Assembly (NCBI GenBank): GCA_964631125.1
Contig: CAZVYN010000008.1
Span: 3,746 to 67,745 of the forward strand
From: an uncultured bacterium
GTDB lineage: Bacteria; Eisenbacteria; RBG-16-71-46; CAIMUX01
Reading direction: 5' to 3'
Length of the DNA: 64,000 nucleotides
Below the pieces are notes generated by a model. That model had not been told where the DNA came from. It worked only from the letters and a program-made list of their open reading frames with translations, and ran no database searches. This document shows, one piece after another, positions 286-53,553 of this stretch. The number at the start of each line of letters is the position of its first letter. Within the stretch, counting starts at the first letter, position 1. Position numbers and translations under genes: made by a program.

Positions 286-723
286 TTAGCGCCGCTTCTC
301 CCCCCGCGCCGCCCACGCGATCGCGAGGAAACAGACGATCAGCAACGCGCTGTACTCCATCCCGTTTCGTCCGGCCCCGACGACGAACCACCCTTCGGTC
401 CAGTGGACGAGGATGACGCCGATGGTCAGTTCGGCGGCGAACCAGAGGGCGAGGGGAAAGACGAAGCGGCCGAGCACCAAGAGCGCGCCGCCGAGAATCT
501 CGACCGCGGTCAGGAGCCAGGCGACGGCGACGGCGACGCCGACGCCGACGGGGAAGCCGCGTAGGCCGAGAAACTCACCGAAGTCGTCGACGGTCCCGAG
601 AGACATGCGGGTGACGCCGTGGATGAGCATCATCGCGCCCACCGCCATTCGGATCACGACCAGTCCTTGACGTTGCCGTCCGATCCGCGAACGGTCGTGA
701 CGTCCGCCGCTCTGAACTGCCAT
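286..723 (-). CDS. DoxX family membrane protein (BufD-like partner of MNIO systems)
   Basis: ORF 286..873(-). The C-terminal 145 aa show the DoxX signature (GFPVGVGVAVAVAWLLTAVEILGGALLVLGRF..., four TM helices). The start is placed at an internal Met (MAVQSGG...). The gene runs divergent to the DUF692 gene. Confidence 0.65.
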   Translation of the reverse strand: MAVQSGGRHDRSRIGRQRQGLVVIRMAVGAMMLIHGVTRMSLGTVDDFGEFLGLRGFPVGVGVAVAVAWLLTAVEILGGALLVLGRFVFPLALWFAAELTIGVILVHWTEGWFVVGAGRNGMEYSALLIVCFLAIAWAARGEKRR

Positions 724-1768
724 GACGCCTCCTTGTCCCCCCGGAGTGTCCCCTCGGAGTGTCCCGTCGGAGTATCCTCGCCCGACGATGAACTCCCCGT
801 CCCAGGCGCCCGAGTCCGCACTCTTCCTCGAGCGCGTGAGAACACTGCCCCATCTCGGGATCGGCGTCTCCACCGAATACGGGGCGGGCGATTCCGCGTC
901 GGCGCTGGATGTCGTGCGGCTTCGACGAGAGCACCCCGGCTATGCCGGGTTCCTGGAGATCGGACTCGAGGCCGACAAGGGGCTGGATCGCCACGCGCGC
1001 GCGTGGGTCGAGTCGGGCGCCGCGTGCACCTACCACTTCCTGGACATCAATCTGGACGAGCCGGAAGACCTGGACGACGACTGGCTTCGGCGCGCGCAGG
1101 AGATGGCGGACGAGATCCGGCCGGCTTGGCTGTGTGGTGACGCGGGGTTGTGGCACTTCGGAGGTCGTGAACGCGGCCACATGCTGCTCCTGCCGCCGGT
1201 GCTCTCCGAAGAGTCGGCTCGCGCGATGGCGGCGGGGATCCGTCGGCTGCGTGAAGCGACCGGGCGCGAGGTATTGCCGGAGAATCCGCCGGGCTCCGTC
1301 TACCTGGGCGATCTGCACCTGCTGGAGTTCTTCGCGCGCGTTTGTGAGTACGCCGACACCGGCATGCTGCTCGATTGCGCGCACCTCGCGATCTATCAGA
1401 TGACGCAGGGACACGCGCCCCTCACCGGGCTCGATCGCTTCCCGATGGAGCGCGTGGTCGAGATGCATGTGGCCGGTGGCACGCGGCGCAGCGTCGACGG
1501 CTACGAGTTCGTCGAGGATGACCACCGCCCGAACGTCTTCGATGAGACCTGGTCGATCTTCGAGCACGCCGTTCCACGGGCCACGAACCTCAAGGCGGTC
1601 GTCTTCGAGTGCGAGCGGAATCCGCTTCCCGACACGCTGGAGGGATTCGCGCGGATCGAATCGATTCTCCGGCGCTCGCCCGTCGCGCCGCCCGTCGCGC
1701 CGCCCTCCGCGCCGCCCGTCGCGCCGCCCTCCGCGCCGCCCTCCGCGCCGCACGTCGCGCCGCGGTGA
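722..1768 (+). CDS. DUF692 / multinuclear non-heme iron oxidase (MNIO, MbnB/BufB-like), TIM-barrel
   Basis: Motifs LGIGVSTEY...FLEIGLE...YHFLDINLD...AWLCGDAGLWHF...LLLPPVL...MLLDCAHLAIYQ match the DUF692 xylose-isomerase-like fold. An alternative start lies at 788 (MNSPSQ). The C-terminal 28 aa form a Pro/Ala repeat tail (PVAPPSAPP...). Confidence 0.75.
   Translation: MTPPCPPGVSPRSVPSEYPRPTMNSPSQAPESALFLERVRTLPHLGIGVSTEYGAGDSASALDVVRLRREHPGYAGFLEIGLEADKGLDRHARAWVESGAACTYHFLDINLDEPEDLDDDWLRRAQEMADEIRPAWLCGDAGLWHFGGRERGHMLLLPPVLSEESARAMAAGIRRLREATGREVLPENPPGSVYLGDLHLLEFFARVCEYADTGMLLDCAHLAIYQMTQGHAPLTGLDRFPMERVVEMHVAGGTRRSVDGYEFVEDDHRPNVFDETWSIFEHAVPRATNLKAVVFECERNPLPDTLEGFARIESILRRSPVAPPVAPPSAPPVAPPSAPPSAPHVAPR
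1677..1762. repeat. 12-bp tandem repeat x7 encoding (PVAP/PSAP)n at the MNIO C-terminus
   Basis: cccgtcgcgccg / ccctccgcgccg units. Confidence 0.85.
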
Positions 1769-1780
1769 GCGGGTGATTCG

Positions 1781-2656
1781 GTGAGCAACGTTCACCTCCA
1801 GCGGCTCGTCGTGCGCATGCTCTACGACTCGCGGTTCTCCGAATCGGTCTATTCCGATCCGGCGGCCGCGCTGGCCGAAATCGAACTGACCGAGGAGGAA
1901 CGCCGCTGGCTGACGACGCCCGATCGCCGCGCCTATCGCACCGACGCTGCGCGCCGCGCACGCTCGCTCACCGTCGTGATCGAAGAGTTCGCTTCCACCT
2001 GCGCCTATTGGATCGCCGCCGGACGCGATGCACGGGCGCTCGATGGATACTTTTCGTCGCGGGAGTTCCACGACGAGATCCAAGCGCGCGGGTCGTTGGT
2101 GAGCGGATTCGGCGCGTATCTCCTGTCACTGAACGATCAGCTCGAGGACGACGCCAAGAAGCGGGTCGCGCTCAGCGAATTGGCGGGACTAGAACTGGCG
2201 TTGGTGAAGTTGCGGCGGCGCTTTCCGTTGGATCCCAAGGGTCCGACGGCACACGGCGAGATCGGTCGCCTGGCCCTCCATCCCCAGGTGGAACTGTTCG
2301 ATTGCGCGGGCGGGACGCTGACGCTCTCGGTCGAGATCCGTCAGCGCCTGGGGATCCCGAAGGAGAATCCGGTCGAGGTGATGTTCCGCCCCGGATTCCG
2401 GTTGGACGGACCCCCCCACGGTCGCCTGCCCAAGATCGATGCGGGCGCGAGGGAGTTCCTGCTGCTAGAGTTCCGCGGCGGAGAAACGACGGTGGGGGAG
2501 ATCAGCGAGGAGCTGTTCCACCTGCTGACGGCGGCCCGGAGTCCAAGGACACGGGACGAGTTGGAGGCGGAGGCGATCCAACTGGGGGCCGAGCCGGACG
2601 AGGCGAACGAGATCCTGCAGGGCTTGATCGACGAGTCGATGTTGCGACCGCGGTGA
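1781..2656 (+). CDS. DUF2063-like protein (BufC/HvfC-type MNIO partner)
   Basis: GTG start 12 nt after the DUF692 stop and in the same frame. The N-terminus MSNVHLQRLVVRMLYDS...AAALAEI resembles a DUF2063 N-terminal domain. At 291 aa the size matches MNIO partner proteins. Confidence 0.55.
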   Translation: MSNVHLQRLVVRMLYDSRFSESVYSDPAAALAEIELTEEERRWLTTPDRRAYRTDAARRARSLTVVIEEFASTCAYWIAAGRDARALDGYFSSREFHDEIQARGSLVSGFGAYLLSLNDQLEDDAKKRVALSELAGLELALVKLRRRFPLDPKGPTAHGEIGRLALHPQVELFDCAGGTLTLSVEIRQRLGIPKENPVEVMFRPGFRLDGPPHGRLPKIDAGAREFLLLEFRGGETTVGEISEELFHLLTAARSPRTRDELEAEAIQLGAEPDEANEILQGLIDESMLRPR

Positions 2657-2761
2657 CCCCGCGGGAAGTTCGACGAAGTGAGACAGAACCGATGAAACGT
2701 TGCCCCGTCGTTTCCGTAGAGGCCTCCGCCGGCTGATCCAGCCGGCGAGCGCGCTGCCGGG

Positions 2762-5500
2762 ATGCGCGACGCTCTCCACTTCCTGAACATGAGAGATCGA
2801 TTCATGACGAAGCCCTCTTCGCGCGGCTGGTTCGCGACGGCCTGGCCCCTCTTGAACCTCTTGACCCTCTTGACCCTCTTGACCCTCTTGACCCCTTTGA
2901 CCTTCGCGGCGCTCTCGACGACGGCCGCCCTCGCGGTCGAACCGCGGGTCTACTACACGGCCCGCACCGACACGCCGCCCCACCTCGACGGCGCTCTCGA
3001 CGATTCGGTTTGGGACAACGTGGAGTGGGGCGGCGACTTCATCCAGCACGAGCCGGCCGAAGGTCAGCCCCCTTCCTGCCAGACTGCGTTCAAGATCCTC
3101 TACGACGACGACAATCTCTACCTCGCCTATCAGGCCTTCGACCCCGAGCCCCAGGCCATCTCGAGCATCTTGGGCCGACGCGACGACTTCCCCGGCGACT
3201 GGGTCGAGATCAACATCGACAGCTTCGACGACAACCGCACCGCGTTCTCCTTCACCTCGAGCGTCTCGGGAACGCAAGGAGACGAGTTCATCTCGGAGGA
3301 CGGCGACAACTGGGACGGCAACTGGGATCCGATCTGGGAGCAACAGACTCGCATCGACGACCAGGGGTGGACCGCGGAGGTCCGCATTCCGCTGGGACAG
3401 CTTCGCTACGCCGACAGCGCCGAACATGTCTGGGGCATCCAGGTGACGCGACGCATCTATCGACACGAAGAGCGCTCCGTCTGGCAGCCGGTCCCGAAGG
3501 ACGAAGAGGGGTGGGTCAGCAAGTTCGGCGAGTTGCGCGGCATCACCGGCATCAAGGCGCAGCGTCAGATCGAGCTGCTGCCGTACGCTGTCACGCAGGG
3601 AGAGAATTTCCCCAAGCAGGCGGGCAATCCGTTCGAGGACGGCAGCAAGGGTCAGGTCGCGTTCGGTCTGGACGGCAAGATCGGCGTCACCAGCGATCTG
3701 ACCGCCGACTTCACGATCAATCCCGACTTCGGGCAGGTCGAGGCCGATCCGTCACAGGTCAACCTGACGGCGTTCGAGACCTTCTTCGAGGAGAAGCGCC
3801 CGTTCTTCATCGAAGGGAAGAACATCTTCGAGTTCCGCGTCGCGCCCTCCATCGCGTTCGGCACGCACACGACCGATCGACTCTTCTACTCGCGTCGTCT
3901 CGGTCGCTCGCCGCACTATCGCGCCGACGGATTCGAGGAGGGGTACGTCGACCAACCTGGCGAGACGTCGATCGTCGGCGCGCTCAAGCTGACCGGGAAG
4001 ACGGCCAACGGCACATCGATCGGTGTGCTGGAGAGCGTGGCGGCGAGAGAGACGGCTGAGATCGATGTCGACGGCGCGAGGCGCAGAGTCGAAGTGGAGC
4101 CGTCGACCAACTACTTCGTAAGTCGCGTCCAACGAGATTTCCGCCAAGGCGACACGCGAATCGGCGGGCTCTTCACGGCGGTGAATCGGAAGATCGACAC
4201 GGACGAACTGAAGTTCGTGCACGAGGCGGCCTATACCGGCGGGCTGGATTTCTTCCACTACACGCCGGGGCGCAAGAACTACATCGCGGTCAATCTCCTG
4301 GCCAGCACGGTGCGGGGCGATGAGGCCGCCATCCTGGCGACGCAGACGGCGCCGGCGCGCTACTACCAACGCCCGGACAACAAGGGGCAGTCGGTCGACA
4401 GCACGCGGACATTGCTGGCGGGACATGGCGGTTCATTGCGGGTCGGAAATTCGCAGGGCAACCTGCGATTCGAGACCGGCGCGGCCTGGCGCTCCTCCGG
4501 CTTCGAACTGAACGACATCGGATACATGCGCAATGCCGACGAGATCAATCAGTTCTCCTGGGCCGGCTACGCCTTCCGCAATCCGTTCTCGATCTTTCGT
4601 CGGATGGATCTGAACCTGAACCAGTGGCTCGATTTCGAATTCGGCGGGGAGAATCTCTACCAGGCCCTGAACTTCAATACGAGCGCGTCGTTCCTCAACA
4701 ACTGGAGCTACAACGGCTCGGTCGCGCGTGAGAACGAGCGCATCTCGACGTATGAACTGCGCGGCGGGCCCTCGATCAAACTCCCTGGCGCGATCAGCGG
4801 CGACTTCGGATTCGACTCCGACGGGCGGCGGAAGCTCGCCTTCGGCGGCGGCGCATCGTTCAGTAGGTCCGACGATGAGGCGGGAAGCTCGAGCGGCTGG
4901 GGAATCGGCGCCTCTTATCGGCCGACGAACGCCATTCGCTTGCAGGTGGAGCCGGAGTACGAGCGGGGCCGGCCGGACATGCAGCACATCTCGCGGGTCG
5001 ACTCCGATGCCGGCTCGCGCTTCATCTACGGCAGCCTCGATCAGGAAACCTTTGCCCTGTCGTTCCGGGTCGACTACAGCGCGACGCCGGATCTCACGAT
5101 CCAGTACTACGGCGCGCCTTTCGTCTCGGCCGGCAAGTATGGCGACTTCAGGCGCATCACCGACCCGCGCGCCGAGAACTACGAAGATCGCTTCGACCGC
5201 TTCGGCGATCGCGTCGAGTTCGACGGGAAGAGCGGCCGGTACTCGGTCGACGAGGACGACGACGGCGTCGAGGACTACTCGTTCCGGAAGCCCGACTTCA
5301 ATGTGCGGGACTTCAATTCGAACCTGGTCGTTCGCTGGCAATACTCGCCGGGTTCGAGCATCTATCTGGTCTGGTCGCAGAACCGCGGCGGCTTCAACCC
5401 GGACGGCAGCTTCTCACTGAAGGACGATCTCGACGGACTCTTCGGCGTGCAGCCGCACGACGTGTTCTTGATCAAGGTGAACAGGTGGTTTGATCTTTAG
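2762..5500 (+). CDS. CBM9-like/DUF5916 domain protein (probable outer-membrane-associated hydrolase-like protein)
   Basis: N-terminal DOMON/CBM9-like region (DGALDDSVWDNVEWGGDFIQHEP...FKILYDDDNLYLAYQAFD...DWVEINIDSFDDNRTAFSF) followed by an approximately 650-aa C-terminal region. Long signal peptide containing an (LLT)n repeat. Alternative starts at 2789 and 2804. Confidence 0.6.
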   Translation: MRDALHFLNMRDRFMTKPSSRGWFATAWPLLNLLTLLTLLTLLTPLTFAALSTTAALAVEPRVYYTARTDTPPHLDGALDDSVWDNVEWGGDFIQHEPAEGQPPSCQTAFKILYDDDNLYLAYQAFDPEPQAISSILGRRDDFPGDWVEINIDSFDDNRTAFSFTSSVSGTQGDEFISEDGDNWDGNWDPIWEQQTRIDDQGWTAEVRIPLGQLRYADSAEHVWGIQVTRRIYRHEERSVWQPVPKDEEGWVSKFGELRGITGIKAQRQIELLPYAVTQGENFPKQAGNPFEDGSKGQVAFGLDGKIGVTSDLTADFTINPDFGQVEADPSQVNLTAFETFFEEKRPFFIEGKNIFEFRVAPSIAFGTHTTDRLFYSRRLGRSPHYRADGFEEGYVDQPGETSIVGALKLTGKTANGTSIGVLESVAARETAEIDVDGARRRVEVEPSTNYFVSRVQRDFRQGDTRIGGLFTAVNRKIDTDELKFVHEAAYTGGLDFFHYTPGRKNYIAVNLLASTVRGDEAAILATQTAPARYYQRPDNKGQSVDSTRTLLAGHGGSLRVGNSQGNLRFETGAAWRSSGFELNDIGYMRNADEINQFSWAGYAFRNPFSIFRRMDLNLNQWLDFEFGGENLYQALNFNTSASFLNNWSYNGSVARENERISTYELRGGPSIKLPGAISGDFGFDSDGRRKLAFGGGASFSRSDDEAGSSSGWGIGASYRPTNAIRLQVEPEYERGRPDMQHISRVDSDAGSRFIYGSLDQETFALSFRVDYSATPDLTIQYYGAPFVSAGKYGDFRRITDPRAENYEDRFDRFGDRVEFDGKSGRYSVDEDDDGVEDYSFRKPDFNVRDFNSNLVVRWQYSPGSSIYLVWSQNRGGFNPDGSFSLKDDLDGLFGVQPHDVFLIKVNRWFDL
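2849..2903. repeat. 9-bp tandem repeat (cctcttgac) x6 encoding (LLT)n in a signal peptide
   Basis: Direct repeats in the 5' end of the CBM9/DUF5916 gene. Confidence 0.8.
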
Positions 5501-5530
5501 TGCGTTGAGACCGCAGCGGTCTCAACGCAC
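5500..5530. terminator. perfect 15-bp inverted repeat with 1-nt spacer between convergent genes
   Basis: gtgcgttgagaccgc-a-gcggtctcaacgcac spans both stop codons. There is no clear U-tract. Confidence 0.4.
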
Positions 5531-7597
5531 CTCCCATCCCACCGAAACCCCGTCCTCTCCGTCCACCACTCCATGTGCGACATCCACCCGAACCTGCCCC
5601 TTCATCCCGACACTCCCCACTCGCACCCCCACGCCCCCATCCACCAACCACTCCGCGCGCCCGAACCCTCCCGTCTCGCACGGCCTCGCCGCATCCACGA
5701 ACAGCGCCCCCCCGATCCGCACCGGCCCCACGCTCCACAGCCACCGCTGGTGCTCGACGCTTCCATGCGCGAGCGCGCGGCCGAACGCGTCGCCGTCGAT
5801 CACTCGGCCGTCGTCCAAGAGCGGATGCGCACGCAGTAGCAGCGTGCGCCCCTGCCCCGTACCGGCGCCCGGCCAGAGCGCCAGTGGCGCGCGCGAACTA
5901 GCGGAAGCCACGCCGACACGGCCGCGCCACGCGCTCCACGCGTCGACTCCGGCCGACCGCCACACGGCAGAAAGGCCGACCGTGTAGAACGGCGCTTCGC
6001 CGTCGAGGTCCGTCCAGTGGGCGAGTTCGGCAGTCAGTGCGAGTCGATCCCGCGCGGCGCGCTGTTCGAACGTTCCGTCCACCGAAAGGGATGCGTCGCG
6101 GCCGTTCCACTTGTCGAGCGCGGCGCCGAAGCGATAGCGCAGGCTCGGAGTCGCCCAGTCGGAGAACGAGACCGAGCTTCGGCGGCGTTCCTCGGGGAGC
6201 GGCGAACGATCGGAGGAGCGCAACGAGTCGTCCGCGGAGGCCGCGCGAACGTACGACTGCTCTTCCCAGAATCCCGCGACGCGCCAGACGCCGGGTCTTC
6301 CGGCGACACCTGGCATGTCGAGCGAGACGGAAACGCGCGGGCGCTCTTCCCACCACCTCCCGCCCACGCTCCACCGTTCTCCATGGCCGATGAGACTGAC
6401 CACCGAGAGTTCGATCTCTCGATCGACCGCGGCCTCGACGCCGAGGCGGACGACATCCCAACGGCTCGCGAAGAGTCGCGGACGCTCGAGCACCGCAACG
6501 TCGATCTGGGCGACGTCGTCCGAGGTCGGCCGCACGGAGAGGCGAGCGGCGGAGAGCGCGGGTAACTCCTCCAGGCGACGTTGCGCAAGGCGGAAGTCGC
6601 GGCGCGTCAGCATCTCGCCCGTTGGGAGGTCGAGTTGATTCGTCACGGCGCGGTAGCGAATGGAGGAGAGACCGTCGACCTTGACGAGATCGGTGCGCGG
6701 GGCCGAGACCGCGTTCCAAGCATCGAGCGCGCCGCCGGTGTCGCCAGCCAGGTAACGGCTACCGGCCAAAAGTCTCCACGCTCGAGCATCGCGTCGATCG
6801 ACGGCGACCGCCTGCTCGGCCAGCTCGCTCGCGCCGATCCAGTCCTCGGAGAGAAAGCGCAGGCCGGCGAGTTCGCGCAGCGGAGCAGAGGATTCCGGGC
6901 AGAGAGCGGCGGCCGCGCGAAGTGTCGTTTCCGCGTCGACCCGCGCGCCGCGCTGAGCCTCGGCAATCCCACGGTCGACGATCGCGCCGCATCCGTCCAA
7001 CGAGTCGAAGGAGCGCGTCGCGGCGGAGTCGACGGGAGCGACCGCAGCGAGTGTCGAGTCGGTTCGCGCGCTACTTCCCGCAGGCGGCAACGCGGTCAGC
7101 ATCCACCGCCCACTGCTCGCCCAGGCGAGGTCGAACTCTGCTTCGCGCAGGACGCGATGGGGCCCGGAGTTCGGATCGTGAACGATGACGCCGCCGTTCG
7201 CCCAGGCAACGACCACGACATAGTGCAGGGCGCTCGAGCTCATGCCGATGGCGCTGCCGACGCCGAGCAGCGCGATGACCGGGCGGCCGCGATCGAGTTG
7301 AGTCTGCGCGGCGTCGGCGGATCCTGCCTCGACCAACGCTGTCCATCCGCGTGACTCGACGGCCGCGACGAGCGATGTGGTGGAGATCCCGGCGCCGTCG
7401 GGTTCGAGGAGGTCGGCGAAATCTTCGGCGTGAACGCCGTCCTCGCCCCAGAAGCGGAACACCATCGCGACGGCGGCGCCGCCGCAGAGAGCGGGGCTTT
7501 GCGGCACGTAGGGCGCGTCGAGAAGTCGGACCGCGCCGGCCACAGAGCAGAAGGCGGTCGCCGTCAGCAAGACGACAACCGCCACCCACGATCTCAT
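5522..7597 (-). CDS. secreted multidomain protein: peptidase C39-like (papain-fold) domain + TPR repeats + POTRA-like/beta-barrel C-terminal region
   Basis: Signal peptide. YVPQSPALCGGAAVAMVFRFWG with HYVVVVAW and HDPN forms a C39_2-type Cys/His/Asp triad. A TPR-like segment follows (AWRLLAGSRYLAGDTGGALDAW). The C-terminal 300 aa have alternating beta-strand character (IDVAVLERP..., GVGVRVGSVGMKGQVRVDVAHG). Confidence 0.55.
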   Translation of the reverse strand: MRSWVAVVVLLTATAFCSVAGAVRLLDAPYVPQSPALCGGAAVAMVFRFWGEDGVHAEDFADLLEPDGAGISTTSLVAAVESRGWTALVEAGSADAAQTQLDRGRPVIALLGVGSAIGMSSSALHYVVVVAWANGGVIVHDPNSGPHRVLREAEFDLAWASSGRWMLTALPPAGSSARTDSTLAAVAPVDSAATRSFDSLDGCGAIVDRGIAEAQRGARVDAETTLRAAAALCPESSAPLRELAGLRFLSEDWIGASELAEQAVAVDRRDARAWRLLAGSRYLAGDTGGALDAWNAVSAPRTDLVKVDGLSSIRYRAVTNQLDLPTGEMLTRRDFRLAQRRLEELPALSAARLSVRPTSDDVAQIDVAVLERPRLFASRWDVVRLGVEAAVDREIELSVVSLIGHGERWSVGGRWWEERPRVSVSLDMPGVAGRPGVWRVAGFWEEQSYVRAASADDSLRSSDRSPLPEERRRSSVSFSDWATPSLRYRFGAALDKWNGRDASLSVDGTFEQRAARDRLALTAELAHWTDLDGEAPFYTVGLSAVWRSAGVDAWSAWRGRVGVASASSRAPLALWPGAGTGQGRTLLLRAHPLLDDGRVIDGDAFGRALAHGSVEHQRWLWSVGPVRIGGALFVDAARPCETGGFGRAEWLVDGGVGVRVGSVGMKGQVRVDVAHGVVDGEDGVSVGWEVR

Positions 7598-14320: not shown

Positions 14321-14376
14321 CGCTGTCTCGGAAAGCGGGCCCGACCGGCGCTCACGAATCGCGCCCGCGCACGTCC

Positions 14377-14400
14377 GCGTCCCCGCGTCCCCGCGTCCCC
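14377..14400. repeat. 8-bp tandem repeat (gcgtcccc) x3
   Basis: Direct repeats lying between the DinB_2 stop and palindrome copy 1. Confidence 0.8.
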
Positions 14401-14418
14401 GCGGCCCTTCCCTTCCGC

Positions 14419-14943: not shown

Positions 14944-15016
14944 GGCGGGACCTCCTTCTGCCCAATGGTGAGCTGCCTGGTAGCCATCATTCGTCATCAT
15001 TCGTCATCATTCGCCA

Positions 15017-15883
15017 TCATTCGCGGGGCGCAGAACCGCCGCGTTCGCGCCCCGCGAGCAGCGCGCGCAACTGCGAGGAATGGGTGCGTCCCGAAGTCAG
15101 CTCCGTGCCATCGAGCAGGACGACGATATACGCGCCGTGGAACCACGGGCGAAGCTCGCGCACCCGATCGAGGTTCACCACGATCGACCGATGGATGCGC
15201 AAGAACCGCGAGGAATCGAGGCGTGCTTCGAGATCCTTGAGCGGTTCGCGGTGCAGGTGCTTCGTCGCGCCAACGTGGAGCGCGACGTAGTTGCCTTCGG
15301 CCTCGATCCAATCGATCTCATCGTCGCGGACGAAGAAGGCGCGATCACCGTCATGCACGACGAGCCGCCGCGACGAAGGGTTCGCAGGAGCGACTGCCGA
15401 AATCGAAGCAAAGTGCTGCAGCGTTCGCATCAAGCGATCGACCGACGCCGTGAGGTCGGTGGCGATTTCCGGCTCCCGCGTCCGCTCCCGCGTCCGCTCC
15501 CGCAGCAGCCGCCGCGCCTCCACCCGCTCCTTCGCTCGCCGCAGCGCGCGTGCAAAGCGGTCGACGTCGAACGGCTTCAGCAAGTAGTCGATCGCCTGGA
15601 GATCGAACGCCTCCACTGCGTGTTGGTCGAACGCGGTGACGAAGACAACGACCGGCGTCTCGGTCGGCGACAGCGCGCGCAGGAGATCGAGGCCGGAGGG
15701 TCCCGGCATCTGGATGTCCAAGAAGACCAGCTCTGGGTGGAGACGACGGATCATCTCGAGCGCCTGTGCGCCGTCGGATGCTTCGCCCACGCACGCGACC
15801 TCTGCGTCGGTCGCGAGCAGCGCACGCAGCCGCGCACGCGCGAGCGGCTCGTCGTCCACCAGTAAGGTGGAGATCGCCGTCAT
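15017..15883 (-). CDS. LytTR family response regulator (REC + LytTR DNA-binding domain)
   Basis: N-terminal REC domain (LLVDDEPLARARLRALL...VFLDIQMP). C-terminal LytTR domain (RLVVHDGDRAFFVRDDEIDWIEAEGNYVALH). Its start overlaps the upstream kinase stop by 4 nt. Confidence 0.85.
   Translation of the reverse strand: MTAISTLLVDDEPLARARLRALLATDAEVACVGEASDGAQALEMIRRLHPELVFLDIQMPGPSGLDLLRALSPTETPVVVFVTAFDQHAVEAFDLQAIDYLLKPFDVDRFARALRRAKERVEARRLLRERTRERTREPEIATDLTASVDRLMRTLQHFASISAVAPANPSSRRLVVHDGDRAFFVRDDEIDWIEAEGNYVALHVGATKHLHREPLKDLEARLDSSRFLRIHRSIVVNLDRVRELRPWFHGAYIVVLLDGTELTSGRTHSSQLRALLAGRERGGSAPRE
15466..15505. repeat. 12-bp tandem repeat x2.6 inside the response regulator gene (encodes RERTRERTRE)
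   Basis: ctcccgcgtccg repeats. Confidence 0.6.
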
Positions 15884-36887: not shown

Positions 36888-38471
36888 CTACTTGGTCAGG
36901 AGCTTCCTGCGCTCCTGCTCCTTCTTCAACACCTCGGTGTTGAGCACCTTGAACTCGACGCGACGGTTCGCCGCCATGCCTTCGACGGTGTTGTTCGTCG
37001 CGACCGGCGCCGACTCGCCGTAGCCCTTCGAGGTGTACTGCGCACGGTCGATGCCGGGGAACTTCGAGAGCAAGTACTCGAGCACGGCGCCCGCGCGCTT
37101 CTCTGACAGCTCCAGGTTGTACGAATCGGAGCCGCGCGCGTCGGCATGTCCGCCGATCTCGATCCGGAGCTGCGGCCACTGCACGAGGATGGTCCCGATC
37201 TCGTCGAGGACCTTGTACGAGACGGGCAGGATGGTCGACTTGGCCGTCTCGAAGTTGATGTCGCGGACCGTGATCTTGCCGGTGTCCAACAGCTCGGTCT
37301 CCCGTTCGCTCACTTCGATCGGGCAGCCTTCGACGTCGACGCGCACGTTGCGCGGGGTGTTCGGGCAGCGGTCGACGCCGTCGACCACGCCGTCGCCATC
37401 GGAGTCGAGAGGACAACCGGTCGCGTCGACCGAGGCGCCGGCCGGCGTCGATGCGCAGAGGTCGATTCCGTCGAAGACGCCGTCGCCGTCGCTGTCGGCC
37501 GGGCATCCGCGTCCGTCGACGGTGGCGCCGGCGGGAGTCCCTTCACATTGGTCGAGACCGTCGTAGACACCATCGGAATCGCTGTCGGCCGGGCAACCAC
37601 GAGAGTCGACCCGCGCTCCGATCGGCGTTCCGCCGCACTGGTCGATCCCGTCGGGAACGCCGTCGGAGTCGCCGTCGATCGGACATCCGTCCGCATCGAC
37701 GCGAGCGCCGAGCGGCGTGTCCGGACAACGGTCCTTCTTGTCTCCGATGCCGTCGCCATCTGCGTCCGGCAGGATGACGGAGCCGCCCAAGGCGAACTCG
37801 ATGCCTGCGCTCAGCATCAGGTTGTGGTTCATCTTGTCAGCCGGAGGATCATCGGCCGGGGGAGAGTTGAACGTCCAGATCTGGTCACGCACATCGGCTC
37901 GCAGCGCGACGCGCGGAGAGGCGCGGAACTTCACGCCAGCGCCGATCTCCGGACCGTTCTCATAGGTCGGATGCTCGTTCTGGATCGCGCCGTCCGGATC
38001 GCGTTCGAACTTCGACTCCTGCCATCCCGCCAAGACGAACGGGACGATGGCGCCGTCGGGAATCAGGTGAACGATGACGTCGACGCCGTACGTGCGCAGG
38101 TCGGCCGTCACCGGCGCGCGGTTAGCGACGCGATCGGCGACGAAGATGGGGCTGCCGTGCATCGACTCGGTGGAGAGCATCCCGTAGTGCGCCTCGATGC
38201 CGAGCATGCGGACGGGGAAGAAGCCCACGCGTCCGCCGAATGCAATTTTGTCTTCGAGATTCACGTGCTTGCCGAACATCGAGTAACCGAGATAGGGCGT
38301 AGCGGTGAAGTGAGGCCCGTAGACTTGCGCGCTCGCCGAGGTTGCGACCGCCGCGAGGGCCATCGTCATGGCGACGAGGCTCAGGCGGAAGTCGGGGCTT
38401 TTCGGCCCCGCATGAGAGGAGCCGGGGATCCCGTGAAATCCGGATTCGAGCGCTGAAGACAGTTGGGACAT
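36888..38471 (-). CDS. OmpA family protein with thrombospondin type 3 (TSP3) repeats
   Basis: N-terminal beta-barrel. At least six DxDxDGxxDxxDxC Ca-binding repeats. C-terminal OmpA_C domain (NFETAKSTILPVSYKVLDEIG...GHADARGSDSYNLELSEKRA). Confidence 0.85.
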   Translation of the reverse strand: MSQLSSALESGFHGIPGSSHAGPKSPDFRLSLVAMTMALAAVATSASAQVYGPHFTATPYLGYSMFGKHVNLEDKIAFGGRVGFFPVRMLGIEAHYGMLSTESMHGSPIFVADRVANRAPVTADLRTYGVDVIVHLIPDGAIVPFVLAGWQESKFERDPDGAIQNEHPTYENGPEIGAGVKFRASPRVALRADVRDQIWTFNSPPADDPPADKMNHNLMLSAGIEFALGGSVILPDADGDGIGDKKDRCPDTPLGARVDADGCPIDGDSDGVPDGIDQCGGTPIGARVDSRGCPADSDSDGVYDGLDQCEGTPAGATVDGRGCPADSDGDGVFDGIDLCASTPAGASVDATGCPLDSDGDGVVDGVDRCPNTPRNVRVDVEGCPIEVSERETELLDTGKITVRDINFETAKSTILPVSYKVLDEIGTILVQWPQLRIEIGGHADARGSDSYNLELSEKRAGAVLEYLLSKFPGIDRAQYTSKGYGESAPVATNNTVEGMAANRRVEFKVLNTEVLKKEQERRKLLTK

Positions 38472-38703: not shown

Positions 38704-38759
38704 CCGCTACGGCGCTATGCCGCTACGGCGCTATGCCGCTACGGCGCTATGCCGCTATG
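38704..38759. repeat. 16-bp tandem repeat (ccgctacggcgctatg) x3.5
   Basis: Intergenic, 70 bp downstream of the ComM stop and upstream of the OmpA-TSP3 gene. Adjacent to a lower-GC stretch at 38560-38700. Confidence 0.85.
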
Positions 38760-38830
38760 CCGCGGTGCGCGCCAAGCGAGCCGTGACCCTGCCGTCGTTC
38801 GTCCATCGCTCCTCCGCCGCTCCGCACTCC

Positions 38831-53466: not shown

Positions 53467-53553
53467 TCCGCGCGTCTCATGCGCGTCTCATGCGTCTCAT
53501 GCGTCTCATGCGTCCATGCGTCCATGCGTCCATGCGTCCATGCGTCTCATGCG
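53467..53553. repeat. compound tandem repeat: (gcgtctcat)x4 then (gcgtccat)x4 then gcgtctcat
   Basis: Lies between the STK2 stop and palindrome copy 2. It shares the gcgtcc core with the copy-1 repeats. Confidence 0.85.

Follow-up and report, generated by a model that had tools for sequence, protein, structure and literature searches.

Several described systems combine an MNIO enzyme (DUF692) with a partner protein: BufB-BufC and HvfB-HvfC (bufferin, oxazolin maturases), TglH-TglI of Pseudomonas syringae (3-thiaglutamate, pearlin; PDB 8HCI and 8HI7), and the pairs with a PME-type 2 partner, which has a DUF2063-like fold missed by the signature and is encoded right after the MNIO gene (PMC12452194). 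The two functions can also reside on one chain: an engineered HvfB-HvfC fusion outperforms the co-expressed pair in activity, and MovX is an MNIO with a natural C-terminal RRE (bioRxiv 10.64898/2026.07.17.739211). Here we analyzed an MNIO-partner pair from an uncultured bacterium of the Eisenbacteria lineage, in a 64,000-nt stretch of contig CAZVYN010000008.1 (positions 3,746 to 67,745; the window), and in particular the junction of the two genes (1677-1790), where the MNIO gene ends in seven tandem 12-bp units and the partner gene follows in the same frame after a single TGA. The feature was found to be ordinary: a coding tandem repeat that is specific to the lineage and lies in a variable tail. 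It is likely that this repeat arose by recent slippage expansion in a tail under no constraint, within an operon of two translationally coupled cistrons, and that the shared frame is coincidental.

The window partner is of PME-type 2: it is DUF2063-like by fold, shows no DUF2063 signature, and is encoded directly after the MNIO gene, an adjacency shared by approximately 140 related loci. As in PME-type 2 proteins of approximately 260-290 aa (for example, WP_006975235 of Plesiocystis pacifica, 276 aa), an N-terminal helical domain is combined with an RRE-type domain structurally related to NGO1945 (3DEE) and TglI, and relatives of the window partner occur in Myxococcota, including Nannocystaceae. 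Many of the PME-type 2 proteins in PMC12452194 accompany TIGR04222 or other precursors, whereas no co-located precursor was identified for the window pair. TglH-TglI shares only 15-17% sequence identity with the window pair, and no TglA-like substrate, TglB-type ligase, or other gene of that pathway was present near the pair. The earlier note had named the genes BufB and BufC. The MNIO-then-partner order and the adjacent DoxX gene are indeed shared with the bufferin systems, and BufB was the best NCBIfam match of the MNIO, but all equivalog scores fell below the cut-offs (BufB, NF050167, 83.4 bits vs. 310; HvfB, 59 vs. 360; ApyH, 60 vs. 400), the partner lacked the DUF2063 signature by which PME-type 1 is recognized, neither a DUF2282 or Buf precursor nor one with a signal peptide was identified, and DoxX was not conserved beside the pair elsewhere. 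Those names were not supported. Engineered HvfBC and MovX indicate that joining the MNIO C-terminus to the N-terminus of a partner is compatible with activity and can even improve it. The window pair is one stop codon away from that state, but it has the stop and a separate start; within this family, the fusion is realized naturally in L041, L093, and L155.

Ala/Pro-rich linkers, such as those of E2 lipoyl domains and the Pro-rich spacers of TonB, are extended and semi-rigid, and coding repeats can arise via slippage of a 3n-bp unit. The window tail resembles these linkers in composition (P, A, V, and S) and in its tetrapeptide period; unlike them, it is a free and unconserved C-terminus with no domain after it.

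The array occupies 1679-1762 on the plus strand, at the 3′ end of the MNIO gene, and consists of seven 12-bp units arranged head-to-tail and in frame. Three units are CCCGTCGCGCCG (PVAP), three are CCCTCCGCGCCG (PSAP), and the last is CACGTCGCGCCG (HVAP). Arranged as V V S V S S V′, the units give rise to a 36-bp higher-order period and encode the tail PVAP-PVAP-PSAP-PVAP-PSAP-PSAP-HVAP, and the open reading frame (ORF) 722..1768 (+) ends in SPVAPPVAPPSAPPVAPPSAPPSAPHVAPR before its stop codon. Tandem Repeats Finder (TRF) reported the segment 1672-1763 with period 12 (7.6 copies, score 126) and also with period 36 (score 155). None of 60 dinucleotide-preserving shuffles of the whole 64-kb window contained an array scoring more than 90; thus, the MNIO-tail array is far beyond chance. 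The stop codon of the MNIO gene is the TGA at 1766-1768 (+), which was seen in every assembly of the window's strain, and it is followed by the 12-nt intercistronic spacer GCGGGTGATTCG (1769-1780, +) and by the GTG start of the partner gene at 1781. The distance from 722 to 1781 is 1059 nt (353 × 3), which puts both genes in one frame. The seven copies encoding a Pro/Ala tail at the end of the DUF692 ORF, the GTG 12 nt past the TGA, and the common frame had all been described in the earlier note and were confirmed. No promoter-like or terminator-like site was found at the junction. Alternative-frame and antisense ORFs across the repeat (encoding ARRA... repeats) were taken as GC-rich artifacts.

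The upstream gene is an MNIO by family and by fold, as had been proposed. Its 348-aa ORF matched PF05114 over residues 75-307 (E = 7.6e-25; 88.1 bits vs. a cut-off of 25), and the AlphaFold2 (AF2) model is a TIM barrel with a confidence (predicted local distance difference test, pLDDT) of 88 and a last helix at residues 280-296. The best solved Foldseek matches were TglH (8hci_B), the DUF692 protein 3bww, and MbnB; sequence searches of PDB with the MNIO and with the partner profile gave no match, and fold comparison alone succeeded. Invariant columns in 52 MNIO sequences were H83, D118, H123, E165, D196, H199, H227, D244, H246, and E274. The barrel ends at approximately residue 297 (...FARIESILRRS), and the repeat tail, residues 298-326, is coil without secondary structure in the AF2 model. 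The barrel and tail positions are those of a 326-aa protein (DUF692/MbnB_TglH_ChrH; 788..1768, +). The ORF is open from ATG 722, from which the earlier note had counted, but the start is most likely ATG 788: 722 overlaps the start of the divergent DoxX gene head-to-head, orthologous MNIOs start approximately 10-20 residues ahead of LPHLGIG, and the Joint Genome Institute (JGI) gene calls use 788. The frame relation to the partner is the same from either start.

The partner gene (1781..2656, +; GTG start) encodes 291 aa, with a helical DUF2063-like domain at residues ~1-145 followed by an RRE-type winged-helix domain at ~163-291, a fold related to NGO1945 (3DEE) and TglI. It had been described as a DUF2063 protein, which stands at the level of fold and fails as a sequence-family assignment: the window partner had no Pfam match even at E ≤ 10, and PF09836 (DUF2063) matched 0 of 101 members of the partner family at E ≤ 0.01. 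The partner has retained a start codon of its own as well as the canonical MSNV..LQR N-terminus. Its family comprised 726 representatives at E ≤ 0.001, and the top 150 were 238-348 aa long with one exception of 701 aa. That protein (P0224) is a partner homolog over its first ~230 residues and continues into a TonB-dependent receptor plug (PF07715, E = 1e-12); the protein may be a genuine chimera or an artifact of gene calling or assembly. As an MNIO fusion it was ruled out, the partner part being joined to the TonB plug and no MNIO being present.

The exact partner protein was found on contigs of the five JGI samples 3300020203, 3300015360, 3300020192, 3300020201, and 3300022222, each time with the 326-aa MNIO. 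These five assemblies (L004-L008; contigs of 6.7-138 kb) differed from the window by 0-3 mismatches over 3-6.6 kb, all had seven copies of the repeat, and the region 1600-1800 was identical base for base. The array was absent from the sister lineages. In L001 and L002 (MNIO 93-95% identical, partner 83%), the MNIO gene ends in ...ARIESILSRS*, followed after 4 nt by the ATG of the partner; in L009 (MNIO 92% identical; the contig holds the 3′ end of the gene), it ends in ...ESILQCSRAAQR*, followed after 10 nt by an ATG. All three have separate genes, no repeat tail, and an MNIO and partner that are out of frame, and their spacers of 4 nt and 10 nt are homologous to the 12-nt spacer of the window. 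Both flanks of the array aligned to L009 DNA (...GCTCGC/GCG...CCGCGC..CGGTGAGC.GG), including the CGGTGAGC at the stop. It follows that the array was inserted, at approximately 72-84 bp, into an ancestral tail that was short and GC-rich, and that the stop codon was there before the repeat expanded.

The tail was likewise variable across orthologs. All 120 MNIO orthologs (62-95% identical, 280-349 aa) are single-domain proteins, and their sequence past the ...GFARIxxxL helix is unconserved and ranges from 0 to approximately 60 aa; PxAP repeats were present in 0 of 120. The window tail was approximately the fourth longest among 93 nonredundant junctions. At the level of assemblies, copy number was 7 vs. 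0 across lineages and 7 in all five assemblies of the same strain, and a copy change in 12-bp units would leave the reading frame unchanged. An exact-pattern scan for copy variants in metagenome contigs with the partner 5′ end returned none, the source contigs evidently lying outside the collection.

Tandem repeats were frequent throughout the window, and the repeat of the MNIO tail is one case of a window-wide mutational habit. TRF reported 25 rows (score ≥ 50), many of them with period 12, compared with 1.5 ± 1.3 in shuffles (approximately 16-times more). When 5.4 kb of the window were aligned with L001 (87% identity), most indels were changes in repeat copy number, and the larger insertions in the window were all tandem-repeat expansions (12 bp in DoxX, 95 bp spanning the tail of the MNIO and the spacer, and 39 bp in the part of a DUF5916 gene that encodes the signal peptide). 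With respect to the suggestion that the 12-mers are prone to slippage, a slippage-like origin is thus supported by the missing insert in the sisters and by the repeat-rich window; the expected variation within the strain was not seen, all five assemblies having seven copies.

The junction was compared across 58 genome loci (Ca. Eisenbacteria, Myxococcota, Bradymonadia, and others) and 80 metagenome loci by tblastn and ORF tracing. A 4-nt overlap (ATGA, GTGA, or TTGA) was by far the most frequent arrangement (102 loci), followed by genes that are separated and out of frame (25 loci), genes that are separated and in frame (5 loci: the window, L019, L022, L109, and L149), single-ORF fusions (4 loci), and other overlaps (2 loci). 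A stricter motif-based census from which identical junctions were removed gave 77 four-nt overlaps, 7 separated out-of-frame pairs, 4 separated in-frame pairs, 1 other overlap, and 4 fusions, plus 4 loci in which the partner start was unclear. Most related loci have ATGA-type overlaps, and in these, too, the MNIO gene stops at TGA. The ATGA overlap is the dominant state and presumably the ancestral, translationally coupled one; in the window lineage and its sisters, drift has led to short spacers. In-frame pairs made up 5 of the 30 separated junctions, no more than the third expected by chance, so the shared frame is not enriched. It had been read as a sign of fusion history, a use that these counts do not support.

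Fused orthologs with a linker, which the earlier note had proposed to look for, were found at four loci, and one of the linkers is Pro-rich. The L041 fusion (~910-2859; Ca. Eisenbacteria metagenome-assembled genome HKST-UBA01) has 646 aa with a charged linker of approximately 65 aa, and its contig has a coverage of only 2.4×. The L093 fusion (~640-2487) has 614 aa with a linker of approximately 38 aa. Both contain a complete MNIO, a linker, and a complete partner, and they are 62% identical over the full fused length, so this fusion was inherited and maintained and is not an assembly error. The L155 fusion (~1540-3163; 541 aa) is more distant (42-48% identical) and carries the Pro-rich linker EGAPPTEGPATMPGPLPWFEGPPPRQ. 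In these three, the canonical start codon of the partner is lost. Between ECERN and VRMLYD, L093 and L155 have 63 codons and L041 has 91; in a read-through product of the window genes this spacing would be 68. The fourth locus, L071 (Nannocystaceae; ~1600-2686, at the contig end), reads through as an apparent fusion, but unrelated residues replace the C-terminal helix of the MNIO and the partner ATG is kept, so that it has the look of a frameshift, either genuine or due to error. A description of natural full-length MNIO-PME fusions was not found in a limited search of the MNIO literature, and no priority is claimed.

Three further searches or candidates bear on the fusions. P0234 (348 aa; L017:2813-3859) was rejected as a fusion, as it carries just the last ~20 MNIO residues (NLKAVVFECERNALEVCLPG) joined to the partner ORF; with no MNIO gene upstream, it looks like the remnant of an MNIO deletion. 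P0041 (L156) is a possible unfused sibling of L093; its contig, of 1.7 kb and low coverage, breaks off at the junction. A protein search with a chimeric query (MNIO C-terminus plus partner N-terminus) gave 50 candidates, did not recover the parents, and was uninformative.

If the tail arose as we propose, a GC-rich 12-bp unit, together with its 24-bp and 36-bp multiples, would have been amplified at the 3′ end of the MNIO gene by replication slippage or unequal exchange. This would have added approximately 24-28 residues of (P-V/S-A-P)n to an unconstrained C-terminal tail. Because the unit length is divisible by three and the tail starts only after the final helix of the barrel, the expansion would have been tolerated and was probably close to neutral. 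The two genes, for the MNIO and for its TglI/NGO1945-like partner, would have remained separate cistrons of one operon, with ribosomes stopping at TGA 1766-1768 and reinitiating at GTG 1781 in place of the ATGA overlap of the relatives; the 12-nt spacer probably serves this termination-reinitiation coupling. Several observations weigh against such a neutral history. The pLDDT of the tail (64-74) is above the values typical for fully disordered segments. The fixity at seven copies could reflect selection, or, equally, one clonal population sampled five times. Natural fusions of the same gene pair exist, with linkers of approximately 35-70 aa, one of them Pro-rich, and the 63-codon spacing of L093 and L155 is near the 68 codons of the window. 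Given the activity of the HvfBC fusion, a tethering role of the tail or low-level read-through would be biochemically plausible by analogy.

It is on such grounds that the Pro/Ala tail may be thought functional, either as a semi-rigid tether or docking arm or as the linker of a sub-stoichiometric fusion made through a leaky TGA, a fusion in progress. Within one shared frame, a single stop and just four sense codons precede the partner start; the pair has become a single ORF in L041, L093, L155, and L071, with loss of the partner start in the first three and evolutionary maintenance at 62% identity in L041 and L093; the L155 linker is Pro-rich, and the spacing in L093 and L155 resembles that of the window; and engineered HvfBC is more active than the separate proteins, while MovX has a fused RRE. 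We nonetheless consider a functional tail unlikely, as it is missing at 92-94% MNIO identity, the in-frame state is not enriched (5 of 30), and the partner retains its start codon and conserved N-terminus. Nor is there a sign of recoding: in folding stability, the 81-nt segment around and 3′ of the TGA does not exceed its shuffles (z = −0.58), and the window lacks a tRNA-Sec gene, although 64 kb is weak evidence in this respect. A structure resembling a selenocysteine insertion sequence (SECIS) or otherwise promoting read-through was sought at the TGA and none was found, and the relatives differ in both spacer and frame. Selenocysteine insertion and programmed read-through were rejected, no stable or conserved RNA element lying 3′ of the UGA. 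Basal read-through of TGA in bacteria is normally at the percent level at most, which also counts against functional read-through. The docking segment offered by the earlier note appears unlikely from sequence comparison, since the tail is unconserved even at 93% MNIO identity. There is, in our estimation, only a small chance that the locus is a fusion in the making, in which the slippage tail would have brought the cistrons into frame at a fusion-like length (68 vs. 63 codons) and a leaky TGA would already supply a little tethered holoenzyme of higher activity as a target for selection.

The opposite direction, a recent split of a fusion gene, was also put forward in the earlier note; an ancestral MNIO-PA-linker-partner gene would have acquired a nonsense mutation and a new internal start. 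Such a split would account for the in-frame arrangement with a linker-like tail, and fused relatives do exist elsewhere in the family. However, the nearest lineages (L001/L002 and L009) are unfused, without a linker, and out of frame; the flank alignment with L009 and the shared CGGTGAGC place the stop before the expansion; in their MNIO part the fused loci reach only 64-70% identity, and their linkers are unrelated; the ATGA overlap dominates in the family and presumably came first; and the window partner keeps its start codon, unlike the partners in L041, L093, and L155. A recent split is therefore largely refuted, and we regard it as highly improbable. GC-rich short repeats are error-prone in short-read assemblies, so that the tract or its length might be an artifact of collapse or expansion; this is least credible of all, because the tract is identical in five independent contigs from five samples (6.7-138 kb), the 84-bp array is shorter than typical reads, and the ORF remains open and in frame. 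The repeat and the shared frame thus indicate no recoding, no split gene, and no conserved docking element, and the annotation should therefore keep two genes.

On the minus strand and divergent from the MNIO gene lies a DoxX-family membrane protein of 145 aa (286..723; PF07681, E = 1.6e-7), which was found beside the pair only in the window lineage and its sisters (also in L001 and L002). No bufferin precursor (DUF2282, Buf_6/12_Cys, EGKCG) was present among the five proteins scanned at 286-7597, small ORFs not being profiled individually. ORF clustering within 1.8 kb of the pair at approximately 135 loci revealed no general precursor; the largest cluster comprised nine loci and included one identified family, a TANGO2-like upstream gene. 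Because no flanking ORF is conserved and DoxX is limited to the window lineage and its sisters, the pair is a stand-alone two-gene module with its substrate probably encoded elsewhere. Across approximately 140 related loci, the MNIO was unusually conserved, at 65-72% identity between Eisenbacteria and Myxococcota and the partner only 30-44%.

These results place a widespread, unusually conserved pair of MNIO and PME-type 2 partner (Myxococcota, Eisenbacteria) as a stand-alone module for which no co-located precursor was identified. They also point to the C-terminal tail of the MNIO as raw material for natural MNIO-linker-partner fusions, which have arisen at least twice. Such fusions, more interesting as a by-product than the window repeat itself, could be handy single-chain constructs, given that heterodimers of the family are often weak (compare engineered HvfBC).

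Two genes downstream of the pair, on the minus strand (5522-7597), a 691-aa protein carries an N-terminal C39-like peptidase domain (PF13529, E = 1e-12). This gene was not seen at the other related loci examined for gene content. Some peptidases of the C39 family process peptide leaders.

Other repeats were observed in and around the neighboring genes. Within the DoxX gene (520-559, minus strand), a 6/18-bp repeat encodes VGVGVAVAVA and includes the 12-bp insertion relative to L001. The divergent intergenic or 5′ region between DoxX and MNIO contains a 13-bp repeat in 3.4 copies (734-777; TGTCCCCTCGGAG), at which L001 differs by 24 bp; this repeat might influence the expression of both genes. 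In the DUF5916/CBM9 protein (2762-5500), 6.2 copies of a 9-bp unit (2847-2919) encode LLTLLTLLT of the signal peptide and account for the 39-bp insertion relative to L001. Periods that are not multiples of three were seen at 53472-53553 (8 bp, 9.3 copies, apparently intergenic) and at 38704-38763 (8/16 bp). Further arrays were located at 14375-14407 and 14985-15023, and a 90-bp repeat in 2.6 copies was located at 37366-37598.

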